From positions 75,535 to 139,534 of the forward strand of contig DOAO01000007.1 in the NCBI GenBank assembly GCA_003504275.1: a stretch of 64,000 nucleotides of DNA, read 5' to 3'. Below, in pieces: positions 6,980-46,951 of this stretch; the stretch's first letter is position 1; each line of letters begins with the position of its first letter. The position numbers and the translations under genes were made by a program. Under the pieces are notes generated by a model. The model ran no database searches, was not told the origin of the DNA, and saw only the letters and a program-made list of their open reading frames with translations. The DNA is from Patescibacteria group bacterium (lineage in GTDB: Bacteria > Patescibacteriota > Minisyncoccia > Phycocordibacterales > UBA12445).

Positions 6980-7397
6980 AGAAAATATAAATCTAATAAA
7001 CAAGAGGGCTCGTGACCTTTATCAAAATGCCATGTTTATTAAATCTATTTTAGTAGGCTTTGTCGCCCTAGCAGTAGATCTTTCTTTAATATTTATTTTT
7101 ACCGATGTGTTTTTGTGGAATTATTGGATATCTGCAAATATCGCATTCATAATTACTATTTTGGTTAATTTCCTGTTGCAAAAATTTTGGACTTTTGGCG
7201 ATAATGTCGTCCACAGAACGAAGGCTCAACTATTTAAATTTTTTACTCTCTCTTTATTAAATCTTTTTGCAAACAGTATTTTAATGTATGTATTTGTAAG
7301 TTTGTTTGGCATATGGTATTTATTAGCCCAGACGGTTATAACGGCAATACTTTTTTTGTTTAATTTTGTGGTTTATAGATTTTATATATTTGTTTAA
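6969..7397 (+). CDS. GtrA-family membrane protein (polyprenyl-phosphate sugar translocase-like)
   Basis: 142 aa with 4 TM segments. Carries the GtrA signature (NFLLQKFWTF). Confidence 0.6.
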   Translation: MEFKENINLINKRARDLYQNAMFIKSILVGFVALAVDLSLIFIFTDVFLWNYWISANIAFIITILVNFLLQKFWTFGDNVVHRTKAQLFKFFTLSLLNLFANSILMYVFVSLFGIWYLLAQTVITAILFLFNFVVYRFYIFV

Positions 7398-7403
7398 AAT
7401 AAA

Positions 7404-8351
7404 ATGAAAATATCAATTGTTGTTCCTGTGTATAATGAAGCGAAGAGTTTGCCGGAGCTTTTTAATGAGATAAGGGCTATTTTACAAAAAGAAAAAATAG
7501 ACTATGAGATAATCGCAATTAATGACGGCTCTCGGGACAACAGTTGGGATGTTCTCAAAAAACTCGGGAGCGATGACAAGAGAATAAAAGCCCTTAATTT
7601 CAAGTGGAATAATGGTCAGACCGCCGCTATGTCTGCAGGAATAAGAGCATCAACAGGGGATGTTGTGATTCCGATAGATTCAGACCTTGAGAACGATCCT
7701 GCTGATATACCAAAACTTCTAAAGAAAATGGAGGAAGGTTTCACTGTGGTTTCTGGATGGAGAAAGGAAAGATGGAGTGGTTCCGCTTTTAGCAGGAAGA
7801 TTCCGTCGGTTATGGCCAACTGGCTCATTTCAAAAATAACAGGAGTGAAACTCCATGATTATGGTTGTACGCTCAAAGCTTACGATAGGGATATTATTTC
7901 TGAGGTAGAGCTGTATGGGGAGATGCACCGATTTATTCCGGCTTATGCCAAATGGAAGGGTGGGAGAGTGGCAGAAATACCTGTTAACTATAGACCAAGA
8001 AAATATGGCGAAAGCAATTATGGTATTTCAAGAACGTTTAGAGTTCTCTTGGATCTTGTCTTGATAAAATTTCTTGTTAAATATATGAATCGTCCAATGC
8101 ACTTCTTTGGTGGGTTGGGTTTTTTTAGCGTAATTTTAGGATTATTATCCGGAACCTTGGCGTTGGTTTTAAAGTATTCTTATGGAATAAGTTTTATTTC
8201 TACCCCAATGCCGGTCTTAACCACATTCTTTATAATCGTCGGTATTCAGATGGCAGCTATGGGTATATTGGCCGAGATGATAATGCGTACCTACTATGAA
8301 TCTCAAAGTAAAACCCCGTACTCAATAAAAGAGAAGATTAATTTTGATTAA
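7404..8351 (+). CDS. glycosyltransferase family 2 (polyprenyl-phosphate glycosyltransferase, GtrB/DPM-like)
   Basis: MKISIVVPVYNE...INDGSRDNS (GT-A DXD context) and a C-terminal TM pair, as in the dolichol-P-mannose synthase / ArnC / GtrB family. Confidence 0.75.
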   Translation: MKISIVVPVYNEAKSLPELFNEIRAILQKEKIDYEIIAINDGSRDNSWDVLKKLGSDDKRIKALNFKWNNGQTAAMSAGIRASTGDVVIPIDSDLENDPADIPKLLKKMEEGFTVVSGWRKERWSGSAFSRKIPSVMANWLISKITGVKLHDYGCTLKAYDRDIISEVELYGEMHRFIPAYAKWKGGRVAEIPVNYRPRKYGESNYGISRTFRVLLDLVLIKFLVKYMNRPMHFFGGLGFFSVILGLLSGTLALVLKYSYGISFISTPMPVLTTFFIIVGIQMAAMGILAEMIMRTYYESQSKTPYSIKEKINFD

Positions 8352-37479: not shown

Positions 37480-37941
37480 ATGGCTACGATACATAGATTT
37501 GAGGATTTGATTTGTTGGAAGAAAGCTCGTGAGCTTACGAAGGAGATATATAAAGCTTTTAAGGATAGTAAAGATCGTGGGCTGAAGGACCAGATTGAAC
37601 GTGCGGCGGTTTCTGTAATGAGCAATATTGCAGAGGGTTTTGAAAGAGGCACTAAACAAGAGTTTCTGAATTATCTTTTTATCGCAAAAGGTTCGGCAGG
37701 AGAAGTAAGATCACAGCTTTATATAGCACTTGATGTTGGTTATTTAAATATTGAAACATTTAAATATTTAAATTCTCTGGCAACGGAAAATTCACGTCTC
37801 ATCCAGAGTTTTACCGAGAAGGTAAGGGGTGGTTCACGTGCGGGAACGCAATTTAAGAAACTAGACAAAAAGGACCCTTTAGAAGAAATTATAAAAGAGA
37901 AGTCCCCAGAGCTTTACGAAAAATTTTACGGAAAAAATTAA
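37480..37941 (+). CDS. four-helix-bundle protein (23S rRNA intervening-sequence-type protein family)
   Basis: MATIHRFEDLICWKKARELTKEIY...SNIAEGFERGTKQEFLNYLFIAKGSAGEVRSQLYIA fits this family. Confidence 0.55.
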   Translation: MATIHRFEDLICWKKARELTKEIYKAFKDSKDRGLKDQIERAAVSVMSNIAEGFERGTKQEFLNYLFIAKGSAGEVRSQLYIALDVGYLNIETFKYLNSLATENSRLIQSFTEKVRGGSRAGTQFKKLDKKDPLEEIIKEKSPELYEKFYGKN

Positions 37942-38158
37942 TAAATTTATAGACGTCCAGCAGGATTAGGTCATATATAATTTTTCTGACGATTAGCAGG
38001 ATTAGGCCACGAGTTACTAATTCGCTTCGCTCATAAGTACTCTCGGCCCCGCCTCAGCTCCCATTCTTGCAGAATGGGTCCCGCTTCCGGCTTTCAAATC
38101 CTGCTGTGGCGCTACAAAACAAAAAACACCCAAATGCTTTCGCATTTGAGGTGTTTGT

Positions 38159-38327
38159 TTTGTGCGCCCAGCAGGATCTTTTCTCTACGAGAACAGTATA
38201 GGTTTCCCATTTTTTCGGATTAAAATCCTCAAAAATAAGGGAGAACCTTTTCAAATCCTGACGCAAGGTAAGCAGTTACCTTGCTTGGGCGCAAGAGAAA
38301 AAACAGGCTAAAGCCTGTTTTTTGTTG
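38159..38327 (-). ncRNA. candidate structured element downstream of tRNA-Lys (trailer element copy 1)
   Basis: Closed by a stem that copies the tRNA-Lys acceptor/3' end (18-nt direct repeat 38159-38177 = 38325-38342). Internal hairpins show compensatory changes relative to copy 2. A hairpin plus T-run terminator separates it from the tRNA. Confidence 0.4.
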
Positions 38328-38400
38328 TGCGCCCAGCAGGATTTGAACCTGCGACCCTCCGCTTAAGAGGCGGTTGCTCTACCAACTGAGCTATGGGCGC
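38328..38400 (-). tRNA. tRNA-Lys (anticodon CTT)
   Basis: Cloverleaf: acceptor GCGCCCA/TGGGCGC, anticodon loop CTCTTAA, T-loop TTCAAAT. No encoded CCA. Confidence 0.85.
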
Positions 38401-38442
38401 TTGATTTGCTGATTTAAAATAACACTTTTAATCTTTTTTTTC

Positions 38443-38609
38443 AATGTGCCCGAGGTGAATCTTCCTCTACGAGGACTGTATAGCTTTCCCATTTATTCAG
38501 AGCAAAGCTCTTCATAAATAAGGGAGAAGCTTTTCGACTCCCTCACGCAGACCAAGCAGTTGGTCTGCTTCGGCATAAAATCAAAACCAAAAGATGGTTT
38601 ATGATTTTG
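38443..38609 (-). ncRNA. candidate structured element downstream of tRNA-Leu (trailer element copy 2)
   Basis: Same architecture as 38159-38327, with a conserved core ...TTCTCCCTTATTT...AAATGGGAAAG/CCTATAC...CTCGTAGAG... . Hairpins vary by paired substitutions (GCAAGGTAA/TTACCTTGC vs GCAGACCAA/TTGGTCTGC; GGATT/AATCC vs AGAGC/GCTCT). Confidence 0.4.
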
Positions 38610-38693
38610 TGCCCAGAGAGGGAGTCGAACCCTCAATCCCTTGCGGGCGACAGATTTTAAGTCTGTAGCGTATACCAATTCCGCCATCTGGGC
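38610..38693 (-). tRNA. tRNA-Leu (anticodon TAA)
   Basis: Acceptor GCCCAGA/TCTGGGC, anticodon loop CTTAAAA, long variable arm, T-loop TTCGACT. Confidence 0.85.
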
Positions 38694-38717
38694 ATTAGAC
38701 CCTTTTTTAGGATCTTG

Positions 38718-38789
38718 AGGCCTGGGGGAGAATCGAACTCCCGCATAACGGTTTTGCAGACCGTCGCTTTACCACTTAGCAACCAGGCC
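38718..38789 (-). tRNA. tRNA-Cys (anticodon GCA)
   Basis: Acceptor GGCCTGG/CCAGGCC, anticodon loop CTGCAAA, T-loop TTCGATT, U73 discriminator. Confidence 0.85.
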
Positions 38790-38794
38790 AATAT

Positions 38795-39145
38795 TTATTT
38801 ATATGCTTGATCAGCTCTGTTCGCTTGGCTTAAAAGCTCATCAATTCTTTGTCTGTGTTTCTCTCCTTTGTCTAATTCAAAATCGAAGAATGGGATAAAT
38901 TTCATATTCCAGTCTTTCTTTACATAGTCACGAAAATCACTTCGTTGTCTCTTTAGGAATTCCAGAGCTCTTTCTTCCCCGCTATCCGGAAGAACCGTAA
39001 AAAGGACCTTGGCCTCCTTCATATCAGGAGAAAGGTCAATGCTCGTTATTGTTATTATCGATTTCTTATTAGAAACTCTCTCCACGAAATCCGCGGCAAG
39101 TTTCATTAAAAGGGATGATATTTTTTCGTTTCGTCTTCCTTGCAT
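38795..39145 (-). CDS. rbfA: ribosome-binding factor A
   Basis: 116 aa with RbfA-like N-terminal sequence. Sits just downstream of infB. Confidence 0.75.
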   Translation of the reverse strand: MQGRRNEKISSLLMKLAADFVERVSNKKSIITITSIDLSPDMKEAKVLFTVLPDSGEERALEFLKRQRSDFRDYVKKDWNMKFIPFFDFELDKGEKHRQRIDELLSQANRADQAYK

Positions 39146-43830: not shown

Positions 43831-46500
43831 ATGATCCCATTTAACAATTTAACTTCAAAAGCGCGTGAAGCCATAAGAAAAGCCCACGAGTTGGTAATAG
43901 AAAGAGGACAAAATCAGGTAAACCCGATACATCTTTTGGTGTCTCTTTTGATACAGGAAGACAGCTTGATTCTTTCTATCTTAGATAAGATGGAAGTAGA
44001 TACAAACTTACTCATGGATCAGCTTCTTGAGTCTGTGGAAGGAGCGGAGAGCCAGAACGTTCTTTCACCTTCATATCAAATATATTTGACCGCTGAACTT
44101 GTAAAAATATTAGATGGTTCAGCCAAGATGGCTGCAGTACTCAAGGACGACTTTATTTCAACAGAACACTTATTTTTATCAATGCTCGAAGAAGCAAACT
44201 CGGCTAGGGAAATTTTAAATAGATTTAAAATAAACAAAGAAGAGGTGCTAAAAATTCTTCAAGATATAAGGAAGGGAAAAATTTCTGATGTTGGCGGAAA
44301 GAAAAAGCCAAAAGCCCTGGAGAAGTTTACGAGAAACCTTACGAGATTAGCCAAAGAAGACAAACTGGATCCTGTTATTGGTAGAGATGAAGAAATCAGG
44401 AGGATAATGCAGATATTAACAAGAAGAACAAAGAATAACCCTGTTCTTGTTGGAGAAGCAGGTACCGGAAAAACTGCGGTTGCAGAAGGTCTTGCTATCA
44501 GAATTGCCAAGGGCGATGTGCCGGAAACTTTGAAAGATAAAGAAATAGTTTCTCTTGATCTCGGTTCTCTTATTGCCGGAACAAAATTCAGAGGAGAATT
44601 TGAGGAGAGATTAAAAGCTATTTTGAAAGATATAGAGAAGTCGGCAGGAACGGTTATTCTTTTTATAGATGAGATCCACACAATAGTGGGCGCTGGTGCC
44701 GCTGAGGGTTCTCTTGATGTTTCAAATATGTTAAAACCCGCTCTTGCAAGGGGAGAGCTTAGGGCTATCGGTGCAACTACTCTTAATGAATACCAGAAGC
44801 ACATAGAAAAAGACCCCGCTCTTGCTAGAAGATTCCAGCCTGTTCATGTGGGTGAGCCAAGTATTGAAGATGGTATCGCAATATTACGTGGTCTTAAGGA
44901 TAGATACGCTATTCATCATGGAATAAAAATAACTGACTCCGCTATTGTAGCTGCAGTTAATTTGAGCAGTAGATATATTGCTGATAGGTTTTTGCCGGAC
45001 AAGGCGATAGACCTCATAGATGAGGCGTCTTCATCTTTACGTTTACAATTGGAAGATAAGCCGATAGTAATTCAGGATACAGATAAAAAAATAATGAGAC
45101 TGGAAGTTGAAAAAGAGGCTCTTAAGAAAGAGGACATTTCAAAAGATGTTCAGGCAAAAGCTAGATTAAAGAAAATAGATAAAGAAATCGCCGACCTAAG
45201 AGAGAAAATATCAGAAGTTGATATGCGCTGGAAGAATGAGAAGAAATTAATAGCTGAGACAAGAACGATTAAAAAAGAGTTGGATATTTTGAGACTTGAA
45301 GCTGAGGCCGCCGAGATGAGATCGGATCTTTCTCTTGCCGCAGAAATAAGATACGGAAAAATACCAACCAAAGAGAAGTCGTTAGCTTCTCTTGAAACAA
45401 AACTCTCCAAACTTCAGCCAAGAAGATTACTCAGAGAAGAAGTCACAGAAGAGGATATCGCAAATGTTGTGTCCAAGTGGACTGGCATCCCAGTATTTAG
45501 AATGCTTGAGGAAGAGGCTGATAAATTGAGAAGAATGGAAGATGAGCTCAAGAAAAGAGTTGTTGGACAGGATGAAGCCATCAGAAAGATATCAGAATCT
45601 ATTAGACGATCAAGAGCTGGTGTTTCTGACCCAGACAGACCAATTGGTTCATTTATGTTCCTCGGTCCATCAGGTGTAGGAAAGACAGAACTTGCAAAAA
45701 CATTATCTCAGTTCTTATTTAATGACGAGAAGGCGATAATCAGAATAGATATGTCCGAATTTATGGAGAAACATTCAGTTTCAAAATTGATCGGTTCTCC
45801 TCCGGGATATGTCGGATATGACGAAGCCGGGAAGCTTACTGAGATGGTAAAACATCGCCCATATTCCATCGTGCTCTTTGATGAGATAGAAAAAGCTCAT
45901 CCGGAGGTGTTCAATATTCTTCTTCAGGTTTTGGATAATGGACGATTGACCGATTCAAAAGGAAGGACTGTTAACTTTAAGAACACTGTTATTATCATGA
46001 CCTCAAATGTCGGTTCCGAATTTGTGAATAAAATGGAGACGATTGGATTTGGTAACGGCAAGAATGAAAAGTCCGAATATAACTTGATGAAAGAAAAGAT
46101 AATGGAAAGACTCAAGGATAATTTCAGACCGGAATTTTTGAATAGACTGGACGAGGTAATCATATTCGATACTTTAAGTAAGGATGTTATTAAGACGATT
46201 GTTGGCGTTCAGCTTGAGGTTGTTAAAAAGAGACTTGAAGACAGGGGAGTAAAACTAGAAGTTACACCTGACGTCTTTGATATACTCGCGACCGAAGGAT
46301 ATGATCCTCAGTATGGTGCAAGGCCGATGAAGAGACTTATTCAGACAAAGATATTAAATAGAGTCGCTGAGTATTTAATATCAAAGAGTTTGAGTCCTAA
46401 GTCGGTGGTAGTTGTCAGTGTTAAAAATAATGATATAATGGTCGGCATCAAAGAAACGTCATCTGAGAAGGTGACTGCTGGGAAGAAAAGTAAGAAGTAG
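43831..46500 (+). CDS. clpB: ATP-dependent chaperone ClpB
   Basis: Clp N-domain, two AAA+ modules (GEAGTGKT; GPSGVGKTE), a long middle coiled-coil between them. 889 aa. Confidence 0.9.
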
Positions 46501-46539
46501 TTGAAAATTGAATAAAGGCAGTGGAAACACTGCCTCAAT

Positions 46540-46622
46540 GCGCAGGTGGTAGAGTGGTCAATTACAACAGACTGTAAATCTGTCGGCTTCGGCCTACGAA
46601 GGTTCGAATCCTTCCCTGCGCA
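46540..46622 (+). tRNA. tRNA-Tyr (anticodon GTA)
   Basis: Acceptor GCGCAGG/CCTGCGC, anticodon loop CTGTAAA, long variable arm, T-loop TTCGAAT. Confidence 0.8.
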
Positions 46623-46628
46623 TAACGA

Positions 46629-46655
46629 AAAAGTTCCCGAAAGGGGACTTTTTAG
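46629..46655 (+). terminator. rho-independent terminator after tRNA-Tyr
   Basis: AAGTTCCC-GAAA-GGGGACTT followed by TTTTT. Confidence 0.7.
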
Positions 46656-46890
46656 TTTGCGCAGGAGAAAGCCATTATCCATGGCTTTCGTGAAGGATTC
46701 GAAGCCTGATTGAGTATTTTTTCTAGTTCAGAGAACGAAGAAAAAATCCAATCAGGTTACTGGTCGTGTAACGACCGAAACTCCTTCCCTGATTTTTTAA
46801 CTGCTTCATTCGCGTAAGGATTCGAAAAGCTCCTCTCATAATTTTTAGGATTTTTTAATCCGAAAAAATGGGAAAGCTATATCTGTGTAT
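46656..46890 (+). ncRNA. candidate structured element downstream of tRNA-Tyr (trailer element copy 3), with partial tRNA-Tyr copies
   Basis: Begins GCGCAGG (the tRNA-Tyr 5' acceptor copy). Contains T-arm-like fragments GAAGGATTCGAA and CTCCTTCCCTG. Core GATTCGAAAAGCTCCTCTCATAATTTTTAGGATTTTTTAATCCGAAAAAATGGGAAAGCTATA is near-identical to copies 1 and 2. Confidence 0.4.
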
Positions 46891-46951
46891 AATAATAATT
46901 AATTTGATATAATTATTGTGCATTATATTTTATCAGTAGGTTAATAATAAA

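Follow-up and report, generated by a model that had tools for sequence, protein, structure and literature searches.

Tandem RtT-like units framed by copies of the tRNA 3' end in the DNA behind tRNA genes of Patescibacteria

Introduction

What is the repeated, tRNA-like sequence that follows the tRNA-Tyr gene at positions 46656-46890 of the DNA analysed here, and why does similar sequence stand behind other tRNA genes of the same genome? The stretch under study, a contig section of 64,000 nucleotides from a Patescibacteria group bacterium, is called the window throughout. A first-pass annotation, made from the sequence without database searches, had described a single trailer element which restarts with the 5' acceptor of tRNA-Tyr (GCGCAGG), carries several T-arm-like fragments and runs into a core shared with elements behind tRNA-Lys and tRNA-Leu. 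Re-reading of the sequence recovered all motifs quoted there at their positions: GCGCAGG at 46659-46665, GAAGGATTCGAA at 46692-46703, CTCCTTCCCTG at 46781-46791, GTAAGGATTCGAA at 46814-46826 and the core at 46827-46881. The meaning given to several of these motifs had to be revised, as described below.

Results

Two units follow tRNA-Tyr

The stretch 46656-46890 consists of two tandem units of one repeat family and is located downstream of the host gene tRNA-Tyr(GTA) (46539-46623, + strand; called by ARAGORN and by the Rfam tRNA model with 63 bits). For the detection of units a covariance model, R1, was built from two near-identical copies with a structure drawn by hand. R1 gave two separate matches behind tRNA-Tyr. 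Thus, the flagged stretch holds two units, with different core types, and not the one element assumed before. The match at unit 1 is full-length (46658-46796, +; 44.2 bits, E=3e-8), and that at unit 2 is partial (46823-46900, +; model positions 43-121, 32.2 bits). The stretch behind tRNA-Tyr folds better than shuffled sequence (z=-6.4).

The arms of the units have their source in the last ~21 nt of tRNA-Tyr (46603-46623, +), here named X, as judged by sequence comparison. X comprises the T-loop TTCGAAT, the T-stem 3' strand CCTTC, the acceptor 3' strand CCTGCGC and the discriminator A followed by T. Between tRNA-Tyr and unit 1 lies a terminator-like hairpin, the tip, with the sequence AAAAAGTTCCC-GAAA-GGGGACTTTTT (46628-46653, +). 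Unit 1 opens with the outer left arm TTTGCGCAGG (46656-46665, +), the reverse complement of tRNA-Tyr nt 66-75, which represent the acceptor 3' strand, the discriminator and the trailer. The GCGCAGG motif is therefore not a restart of the tRNA 5' acceptor; it is the reverse complement of the tRNA 3' end together with the genomic trailer. The hairpin hp1 (GAAAGCCAT-TATCC-ATGGCTTTC, 46667-46689, +; taken from the MFE fold) branches off between the outer and the inner left arm and is, across the family, a covarying 9-bp helix. The inner left arm, GAAGGATTCGAA (46692-46703, +), is the reverse complement of tRNA-Tyr nt 54-65, i.e. of the T-loop and the T-stem 3' strand.

The left arms enclose, together with the right arm, a type B core (46704-46776, +), which rests on the RNAalifold consensus, the R1 match and the fold (z=-7.2). 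Its first part is a long imperfect hairpin (46704-46757, +); the junction TACT (46758-46761, +) comes next, followed by a short hairpin whose triloop is GTA (46762-46776, +). The right arm GAA-AC-TCCTTCCCTG (46777-46791, +), defined by comparison with the tRNA, repeats tRNA-Tyr nt 57-69 in direct orientation, interrupted by an insertion of 2 nt, and ends within the acceptor strand. What had been read as T-arm-like fragments are inverted and direct copies of the T-loop and T-stem 3' strand, which make up a closing stem. The fold of unit 1 (46658-46791; type B) reaches -54.1 kcal/mol (z=-7.2). Judged by its sequence, the unit appears intact except for the shortened right arm.

In unit 2 the outer left arm is missing, as is the 5' half of hp1; the same form of junction is present in the locus L058. 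It begins with a remnant of hp1, recognised by sequence and consisting of the loop AACTGCTT, the 3' half of the stem and GCGT (46799-46815, +), and continues with the inner left arm TAAGGATTCGAA (46815-46826, +), which differs by one mismatch from the reverse complement of tRNA-Tyr nt 54-65. The type A core that follows, a long hairpin plus TATA (46827-46881, +), was identified by a type A search pattern, a shared 25-mer and the partial R1 match. It breaks off ahead of the short hairpin, and the right arm is missing. On its own unit 2 (46799-46881) does not fold significantly (z=-1.05) and is, as far as its letters tell, a decaying type A remnant.

A second, larger fold is possible at this locus. 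The 3' part of tRNA-Tyr, the tip and the left arms (46603-46703) form a giant hairpin with the tip as its apex (-60.3 kcal/mol, z=-12.2), which is stabler than the fold of unit 1 itself. By eye, tip hairpins are G+C-rich hairpins followed by a U-run; a simple terminator scan flagged the one at 38129-38150 and did not flag that at 46628-46653. The units themselves are not terminators.

Sister copies in the window

Further units are found at the cluster of genes for tRNA-Cys, tRNA-Leu(TAA) and tRNA-Lys(CTT), which lie at 38327-38789 on the - strand (ARAGORN, Rfam). Type A units were found behind tRNA-Leu(TAA) (38444-38577, -; R1 86.3 bits; -55 kcal/mol, z=-5.5) and, with both arms complete, behind tRNA-Lys(CTT) (38162-38293, -; R1 104.8 bits; -54.6 kcal/mol, z=-6.8). 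The latter is followed by a type C unit (37985-38118, -; assigned by sequence and fold), which has a contiguous left arm and no hp1. Reverse-complemented, this left arm corresponds to the preceding right arm together with that arm's own trailer.

The core behind tRNA-Tyr had been regarded as near-identical to those behind tRNA-Lys and tRNA-Leu. For tRNA-Lys this is correct: the 25-mer AATCCGAAAAAATGGGAAASCTATA occurs exactly at 38197-38221 (-) and at 46857-46881 (+) and nowhere else in the window, where shuffles expect 0 occurrences. The tRNA-Leu copy diverges at its hairpin tip and gives no match to the 25-mer even at 3 mismatches; it is recognised by the covariance model with 86 bits. When R1 was run with filters off over the whole 64-kb window, only four significant sense-strand matches were obtained, each of them behind a tRNA.

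Arms are copied from the host gene

Each unit consists of a left arm, a core of type A, B or C and a right arm, and a tip separates it from the host gene or from the previous unit. In arrays the order X - tip - rcX - core - X recurs. As a reverse complement, the left arm covers tRNA nt 54-75; in types A and B hp1 interrupts it, and in type C it runs without a break. The right arm reads in the same direction as the host gene and copies it from nt 56/57 on. In the locus L013 the right-arm repeat extends 38 nt into the trailer and is exactly equal to the upstream copy.

That the left arm is an inverted copy of the host 3' end follows from its behaviour towards T-loop variants, trailers and wobble pairs. 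The segment after the 'T-stem' copy varies with each variant of the host T-loop, as its reverse complement: a host T-loop TTCAAAT is accompanied by ATTTGAA in the element, TTCGAGT by ACTCGAA, TTCGATT by AATCGAA, TTCGACT by AGTCGAA, TTCGACC by GGTCGAA and TTCGATC by GATCGAA. Of 42 informative positions in the three bases before the 'acceptor' segment, 33 complement the trailer (for example, a trailer ACA appears as TGT in the element), while only 3 of the 42 agree with the tRNA's own leader. Moreover, wobble pairs of the tRNA are replaced in the element by Watson-Crick pairs which complement the 3' strand (five of six cases). The base preceding the acceptor-like stem is almost always U.

The two arms are not equally well preserved. 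In ungapped comparison left arms diverge from the host by 13% and right arms by 25.5%, and between about a third and a half of the right arms show truncation or decay. Within the left arm, mismatches amount to 0.74 per 12 nt in the inner part versus 1.98 per 9 nt in the outer part.

A family with three conserved cores

Altogether about 70 copies were found across some 60 Patescibacteria loci, and their cores fall into the three types A, B and C. Type A was searched with a degenerate pattern, from which part of the apparent invariance of the core stems. Among 185,579 species genomes this pattern detected 29 stretches, all in Patescibacteria MAGs; 28 metagenome contigs matched as well, and the viral contigs gave no match to it. 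R1 at E<=1e-8 yielded 38 copies in the window and 29 genome loci and a further 34 copies in metagenome and relative loci.

The predicted structure is supported by covariation in each core type. In the R1 alignment, which was guided by the model, paired cells account for 95.4%, versus 68% after shuffling and 31-54% in slid controls, and changes on both sides occur in 46 of the 50 pairs. An independent RNAalifold analysis of type B (8 copies) returned 36 pairs, 23 of them with compensatory changes. Type C, aligned independently of R1, has a consensus fold of its own, with compensatory changes in 21 of 26 pairs. The unpaired junctions and the GUA triloop are strongly conserved in the family. G.U pairs outnumber A.C pairs (70 vs 24), which indicates that the folded strand is the sense strand of the tRNA. 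This excess cannot tell RNA from single-stranded DNA.

At the gathering threshold no Rfam family matched the units anywhere in the window. A permissive Rfam search of 37900-38800 and six loci detected only tRNAs, tmRNA and a group I intron, the weak matches of miRNA type being noise. In the literature on tRNA-like elements in Patescibacteria, Parcubacteria and Saccharibacteria no description of such elements was found.

Units are linked to tRNA-like genes

Units start 10-52 nt past a tRNA called by ARAGORN on the same strand (10-47 nt in the genome loci and the window). Of the 34 matches in a metagenome sample that served as an independent set, 23 have a same-strand tRNA within 60 nt. Other copies follow another unit, a group I intron tRNA, a tmRNA or a decayed tRNA 3' end, or are found at the edge of a locus; for two copies in genome loci (L028, 4276-4416; L005, 769-981) the upstream context was not traced. 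The hosts comprise tRNAs of at least 17 amino-acid identities and tmRNA. Units recur behind identical tRNAs (Leu-taa, Tyr, Lys) in distant genomes and also occur within tRNA clusters, for example in the order Leu-unit-Lys. The earlier proposal that the element follows tRNA genes, in a relative orientation that is fixed on either genomic strand, is borne out by these data, the matches being co-oriented with the tRNA. Cores scattered at random sites in both orientations would have refuted it; among the matches none was antisense to a neighbouring tRNA.

In order to estimate how common the arms are, tRNA genes with enough downstream sequence were inspected. An inner left arm lies within 130 nt downstream in 61 of 82 such genes (74%). 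A stricter test found it behind 29 of 45 tRNA genes and in none of three control placements. Since many loci had been picked for containing a type A core, the estimate leans partly on bystander tRNAs and on loci fetched via ClpB or RbfA.

Units turn over rapidly among relatives

The first-pass annotation had suggested looking for presence/absence polymorphism in sister genomes. Close relatives do indeed differ in the units found at shared tRNA loci. By its ClpB the window is assigned to Parcubacteria group bacterium GW2011_GWF2_38_76, which was recovered from Rifle aquifer samples. The junction of clpB and tRNA-Tyr is common to four relatives, and the content downstream of it differs in all four. 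In the window tRNA-Tyr is followed by a type B unit and a type A remnant. L031 (ClpB 92% identity) has a solo degenerate left arm at this place, L035 (84%) a type C unit, a small-ORF cassette and a type A remnant, and L033 (85%) an ORF cassette, a decayed copy of the tRNA 3' end, a type C unit and half a type B unit. The small-ORF cassette measures ~440 nt, lies between repeats of the tRNA-Tyr 3' end and takes a different position in two relatives.

Unit content also differs between relatives at the cluster of rbfA with tRNA-Cys, tRNA-Leu and tRNA-Lys. The gene for tRNA-Cys is followed in L067 by a unit, in L065 by a solo arm and in the window by just a hairpin. What is probably the native terminator of tRNA-Lys comes after the unit in L067 and ahead of it in the window. 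Where relatives differ by substitutions in a host T-loop, the left arm shows the mirrored change in three instances, whereas the right arm at tRNA-Leu does not follow. In one genome near-identical 32-nt tips occur behind tRNA-Lys and tRNA-Tyr with arms fitted to each host. Nested copies were observed, in which units without arms are located within the hairpin tip of another unit, and intact units were found behind decayed tRNA 3' ends. The ten genes flanking the two arrays of the window include no transposase, integrase or reverse transcriptase, and neither an excised form nor a clean empty site was seen.

Discarded identities

Several other identities of the units were considered and dropped. 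A tRNA-like or tmRNA-like RNA with an insert in its T-loop is contradicted by the 'T-loop', which is the reverse complement of the host T-loop, and also by the 'acceptor 5' strand', which complements the 3' strand plus trailer. The junction strands UCGAAA, AUACUG and AGA do not fit, by eye, the core of a hammerhead, and Rfam detected no ribozyme, so a hammerhead or other small ribozyme was rejected. A small peptide starting at the conserved AUGGGAAACC, suggested by analogy with the tpr gene inside an RtT repeat of E. coli, was ruled out as well: the downstream 'codons' coincide with the short hairpin and its covariation, and no conservation is apparent among the putative peptides. A phage origin was abandoned because the viral contigs lack the type A pattern. 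A link to the adjoining gene for a 23S-rRNA-IVS protein was rejected, too; this gene is syntenic in one relative, L067, and absent from all loci compared earlier. Finally, were a palindrome extended outward from the tip hairpin, the outer left arm should be the one with fewer changes, while in fact the inner one is.

Discussion

Origin and spread of the cassettes

The data establish a modular and structured family of cassettes which is framed by tRNA 3' ends, uses three cores, forms arrays and turns over quickly. As to its nature, we tentatively prefer the view that these are RtT-like, non-coding and non-autonomous cassettes which colonise the DNA behind tRNA-like 3' ends, be it those of tRNA, intron tRNA or tmRNA; our confidence in it stays somewhat short of even. 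Cassettes of this kind might spread and reshuffle with the repeated tRNA 3' ends as the sites of recombination. Hairpin-templated copying or correction, such as template switching of the quasipalindrome type, could keep the left arm matched to its host. Read-through transcripts would presumably fold as RtT-like RNAs clamped by a mimic of the acceptor/T minihelix; transcript data that bear on this inference are not available. Homology-directed integration leaves unexplained how the same core and tip families acquired new arms at no fewer than 17 tRNA identities and tmRNA, and why the tRNA-Lys unit of the window stands after the apparent native terminator, when it precedes it in L067. Both points count against the preferred view, as do the lack of a transposase, integrase or reverse transcriptase among the ten flanking genes and the failure to see an excised form or a clean empty site.

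It is conceivable, though in our opinion unlikely, that the cassettes constitute a self-retargeting module, whose cores land behind any tRNA-like 3' end and have their clamp rewritten from that gene. The clamp would then be made of one inverted and one direct copy of the target gene. The copying might be achieved by dedicated or replication-coupled synthesis, either hairpin-primed or with template switching; alternatively, an unknown recombinase or reverse transcriptase could recognise the T-arm/acceptor structure. If true, this would amount to target-templated homing without a protein gene, and the RNA of the module could switch the adjoining tRNA between a folded and a sequestered state.

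Do the units serve the host or the tRNA next to them? Core conservation across distant Patescibacteria and the recurrence at Leu-taa, Tyr and Lys would also fit a host function, and the units could be host-beneficial RtT-like small RNA genes co-transcribed with the tRNA. We consider this somewhat unlikely, although it is not excluded and is compatible with the cassettes proposed above. On this view a minihelix of acceptor and T-stem would be restored by the arms, enabling RNase P, RNase Z and the CCA-adding enzyme to release and stabilise the RNA, and a protein or RNA partner would bind to the conserved core. Such a role agrees with the strong covariation in all helices, with the high conservation of the unpaired junctions and the GUA triloop and with the G.U excess over A.C on the tRNA sense strand. 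The near-constant U before the acceptor-like stem, as found in good RNase P substrates, the units inside tRNA clusters such as Leu-unit-Lys, the recurrence behind the same tRNAs in distant genomes and the E. coli rttR RNA, which reportedly stems from one repeat unit of the tyrT operon (PMC3318445), point the same way. Yet many right arms are truncated or decayed, so that no minihelix can form, and still the left arms are intact; discriminator and trailer are paired with the left arm, unlike in tRNA precursors; a terminator-like hairpin with a U-run stands ahead of most units; and units are readily lost, swapped or nested among relatives. Nor does a need for processing give any reason for a stem that copies the neighbouring tRNA. 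An attractive minority view, to which we assign a low probability, is that the units act in cis on the tRNA, as an RNA switch, a quality control device or an insulator. In read-through RNA the left arm would pair with the tRNA 3' strand, giving the giant hairpin with the terminator at its tip; the tRNA would thereby be unfolded and lose its activity, or a site for RNase III would arise. By binding the left arm in turn, the right arm could set the tRNA free again. The stability of this hairpin (-60.3 kcal/mol, z=-12.2, above that of the unit fold), the left arms that follow host T-loop substitutions between relatives when right arms do not, and the better conservation of left over right arms speak for such a switch. 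It does not account for three conserved cores, hp1, multi-unit arrays and nesting, nor for intact units behind decayed tRNA remnants. In addition, the inner left arm, on the core side, is better kept than the outer one on the tip side; hence a stem that closes the core fits at least as well.

The arm duplex could also be regarded as DNA. Folded single-stranded recombination sites, similar to attC or the CTX attP, might serve a tyrosine recombinase that targets the 3' ends of tRNA and tmRNA genes; the arm duplex would mimic the double-stranded target, and the hairpins and small genes between units would be the cassettes. The duplex exactly reproduces the T-loop-to-acceptor duplex with wobble pairs corrected to Watson-Crick pairs, and tmRNA is used besides tRNA, as genomic-island integrases are said to do (attributed to Williams 2002). 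GNA triloops and tandem G.A pairs are stable in DNA, too, and the ~440-nt small-ORF cassette between repeats of the tRNA-Tyr 3' end, differently placed in two relatives, would suit such a system. No integrase was found near the arrays of the window, however, known attC sites are not matched to the gene at which they attach, and the type A pattern had no match in viral contigs, all of which makes recombination sites very doubtful. Decaying tandem tRNA duplicates, i.e. pseudo-tRNAs, or chance similarity deserve practically no credence any more. The flanks do look like acceptor and T-stem strands of a tRNA, but the 5' segments complement the 3' end and do not copy the tRNA 5' strand, and there is neither a D-arm nor an anticodon arm; ARAGORN and Rfam (RF00005) call no tRNA in the units. 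The same cores stand behind at least 17 tRNA identities in dozens of genomes. The absence of hits in shuffles and at control positions, the covariation and the complementarity of the 5' segments to the 3' end already refute this reading.

Implications

With units behind about three quarters of the sampled tRNA genes, Patescibacteria would possess a pervasive and previously undescribed layer at their tRNA loci. These bacteria represent a large share of bacterial diversity and have genomes otherwise reduced to essentials. The match of arms and host suggests that DNA or RNA is copied at tRNA 3' ends; if an enzyme did this, it would be a new mode of target specification. E. coli RtT has been unexplained for decades. 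The design principle common to both, in which a mirror copy of the tRNA 3' end clamps a structured RNA, becomes testable with three independent cores and dozens of host tRNAs. There are practical consequences as well: metagenome assemblies break at tRNA loci with units, as contigs L064 and L066, which end there, illustrate, and units could be wrongly annotated as pseudo-tRNAs or terminators.

Comparison with known systems

Plant mitochondrial t-elements and the mascRNA of MALAT1 are tRNA-like processing signals. The cassettes share with them a helix resembling acceptor and T-stem beside another RNA, which could recruit RNase P or RNase Z, although processing of the cassettes is putative. Those signals, in contrast, are not copies of an adjoining tRNA and have no conserved inserted core.

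MITEs and foldback elements are likewise short, non-coding, multicopy and bounded by inverted repeats, with presence/absence polymorphism and nesting, and in this respect the cassettes qualify. The terminal inverted repeats of MITEs are, however, constant within a family and flanked by short target duplications, whereas those of the cassettes change with each host gene and one of the arms is a direct copy of the target. Constant termini with short target duplications are thus not given here, the right arm being a host copy of 13 to 38 nt.

Like attC and the CTX attP, the units are imperfect palindromes of ~60-140 nt in which the fold is more conserved than the sequence, with variable terminal structure and arrays that have cassettes in between. 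The stems of the cassettes are copied from the neighbouring gene and those of attC are not, and only the general palindromic architecture is comparable. No IntI or Xer gene has so far been connected with the units, and boxes of the attC type, R''/L''-L'/R' with a conserved GTTRRRY core site, did not come to notice in them.

The attachment sites of integrative elements offer another parallel. Integrases reportedly show a sublocation preference within tRNA and tmRNA genes (again ascribed to Williams 2002). In both cases the insert is bracketed by direct repeats that correspond to the 3' part of a tRNA or tmRNA gene and start in the T-loop or close to it, tandem arrays form at one gene, and decayed partial tRNA copies are left. 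The insert of the cassettes, on the other hand, measures just ~130-180 nt and contains no integrase and no ORF; the cassettes also carry an inverted repeat copy, and the same insert families occur at many different tRNAs. An integrase in or next to the insert, as expected of an integrative element, is lacking: the ten genes flanking the arrays of the window are without a recombinase domain.

The closest relatives in design are the RtT repeats of E. coli (RF00391), which occur as 178-bp repeats at tyrT-tyrV. In K-12 each RtT unit defined by Rfam at this locus ends with the exact last 19 nt of tRNA-Tyr, AATCCTTCCCCCACCACCA, a sequence that was found six times. The structured part of RtT opens with the reverse complement of this copy (GGGGAAGGAT; GGGGAAGGAU), and exactly that stem of inverted and direct tRNA-Tyr 3' ends closes the Rfam consensus structure. 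Consequently, RtT is closed by the same frame and has the same design as the units of Patescibacteria. The E. coli gene tpr is annotated inside an RtT repeat. One repeat unit of the tyrT operon reportedly encodes the rttR RNA, whose function is unclear (PMC3318445; bioRxiv 10.1101/2024.07.17.603846). According to the first article, which cites Bosl and Kersten 1991, rttR is set free as an RNA of its own when the transcript of the tRNA operon is processed (PMC3318445).

In both systems tandem units lie directly downstream of a tRNA gene, the closing stem is formed in the trailer by an inverted and a direct copy of the adjoining tRNA 3' end, and the function is poorly understood. Their cores are unrelated in sequence, however. 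The RF00391 model, whose gathering threshold is 45 bits and which scores 133-137 bits on the E. coli positive control, had no match in the window at gathering, in 37900-38800 at E<=10 or in six Patescibacteria loci at E<=1. RtT of K-12 is restricted to tRNA-Tyr, while the cassettes of Patescibacteria occur with matching arms at 17 or more tRNA identities and at tmRNA. Their left arm, which hp1 splits, covers the entire acceptor strand and reaches into the trailer, and the family has three core families, nesting and arrays of mixed type. The family is absent from Rfam and, as far as searched, from the literature, and it is best filed as a new and far more elaborate variant of the RtT kind.

Arrays behind tRNA-Lys and tRNA-Tyr

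In the window a third element type, type C, comes after the tRNA-Lys unit. Together with a trailing repeat this element occupies positions 37952–38118 of the minus strand (motifs AGCCGGAAGC...GCTGAGGCGGGGCC...GTGGCC), and its left arm, which in these cassettes is the reverse complement of the host gene's 3' end, is contiguous. Beyond it lies a degenerate further copy of the tRNA-Lys 3' end, AATCCTGCTGGACGTC, at 37952–37967. Thus, the end of the gene is repeated at least three times in the tRNA-Lys array.

The end of this array is convergent with a plus-strand gene at 37480–37941 for a 23S rRNA intervening-sequence (IVS) protein (PF05635, E=1.9e-34). No copy of this gene was found in any of the other loci that were checked for it. 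The relative L067 keeps the same gene order as the window, namely rbfA, tRNAs, IVS-protein, epimerase and SecA.

At tRNA-Tyr the 3' half of the gene is predicted to form a giant hairpin (46603–46703, plus strand) together with the terminator-like hairpin and with the left arms of unit 1, the type B unit behind the gene. The computed fold reached −60.3 kcal/mol (z = −12.2), and the fold of unit 1 on its own was less stable. The palindrome between the tRNA-Tyr 3' half and the unit 1 left arms accounts for the weak antisense matches of the covariance model of the cassettes at the tRNA/unit boundaries.

Two promoter-like sites were observed near these arrays. A strong sigma-70-like site (46412–46439, plus strand; TTGTCA-16 nt-TATAAT with TG upstream, 11/12 matches) lies within the 3' end of clpB, approximately 100 nt upstream of tRNA-Tyr. 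The weaker one (38444–38416, minus strand; TTGAAA-17-TATTTT) overlaps the end of the tRNA-Leu unit and is located immediately upstream of tRNA-Lys.

Nested and additional modules

Among the comparison loci, the hairpin that splits the left arm of types A and B (hp1) was found nested together with a type B core in two cases, both without arms. In L005 (769–981) the pair is inserted into the tip of a long hairpin of type A, and in L001 (~7290–7500) it lies within a type C unit behind tRNA-Leu-tag. In some copies the short hairpin is separated from the right arm by an additional short module with the approximate consensus AAGCGTACTCGCGG / GATGTACTCATGG; such copies are found in L005, L001 (behind tRNA-Lys), L027 and L028 (behind tRNA-Ala-ggc). 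A fragment of this module, GCGTACTTC, persists behind tRNA-Cys in L065.

A cassette of ~440 nt consisting of a promoter-like site, an ORF of ~55 codons and a terminator was found amid tRNA-Tyr 3'-end repeats in the relatives L033 (6800–7230) and L035 (3440–3830). Its location is not the same in the two loci, and in L033 it is flanked by a decayed partial tRNA copy.

We suspect that short-read assemblies break at tRNA loci because of the repeated units: the contigs of two relatives, L064 and L066, end near the tRNA cluster, the former inside the tRNA after tRNA-Cys and the latter 96 nt past rbfA.

Other host genes and the E. coli RtT locus

In L042 (5600–6291, minus strand) the host gene is a tmRNA (Rfam, 109 bits). 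Behind it stand a tip hairpin, then a left arm that reads as the reverse complement of the 3' end of this tmRNA, then a type C core and finally one of type A. Therefore, the elements use tmRNA besides tRNAs. Type B and then type A units also stand behind tRNA genes interrupted by a group I intron in L024 (5029–5271) and L045 (413–696). Both introns were identified by Rfam (RF00028, 78–86 bits across the two loci); the interrupted genes were not called by ARAGORN. In L008 a type A unit follows a tRNA whose group I intron was seen by eye only.

In the RtT locus of E. coli K-12 (L030, 1286000–1288200) six copies of the final 19 nt of tRNA-Tyr lie within 900 bp. Two belong to the tRNAs themselves, and the other four form the ends of RtT units, one of which contains the annotated tpr ORF.
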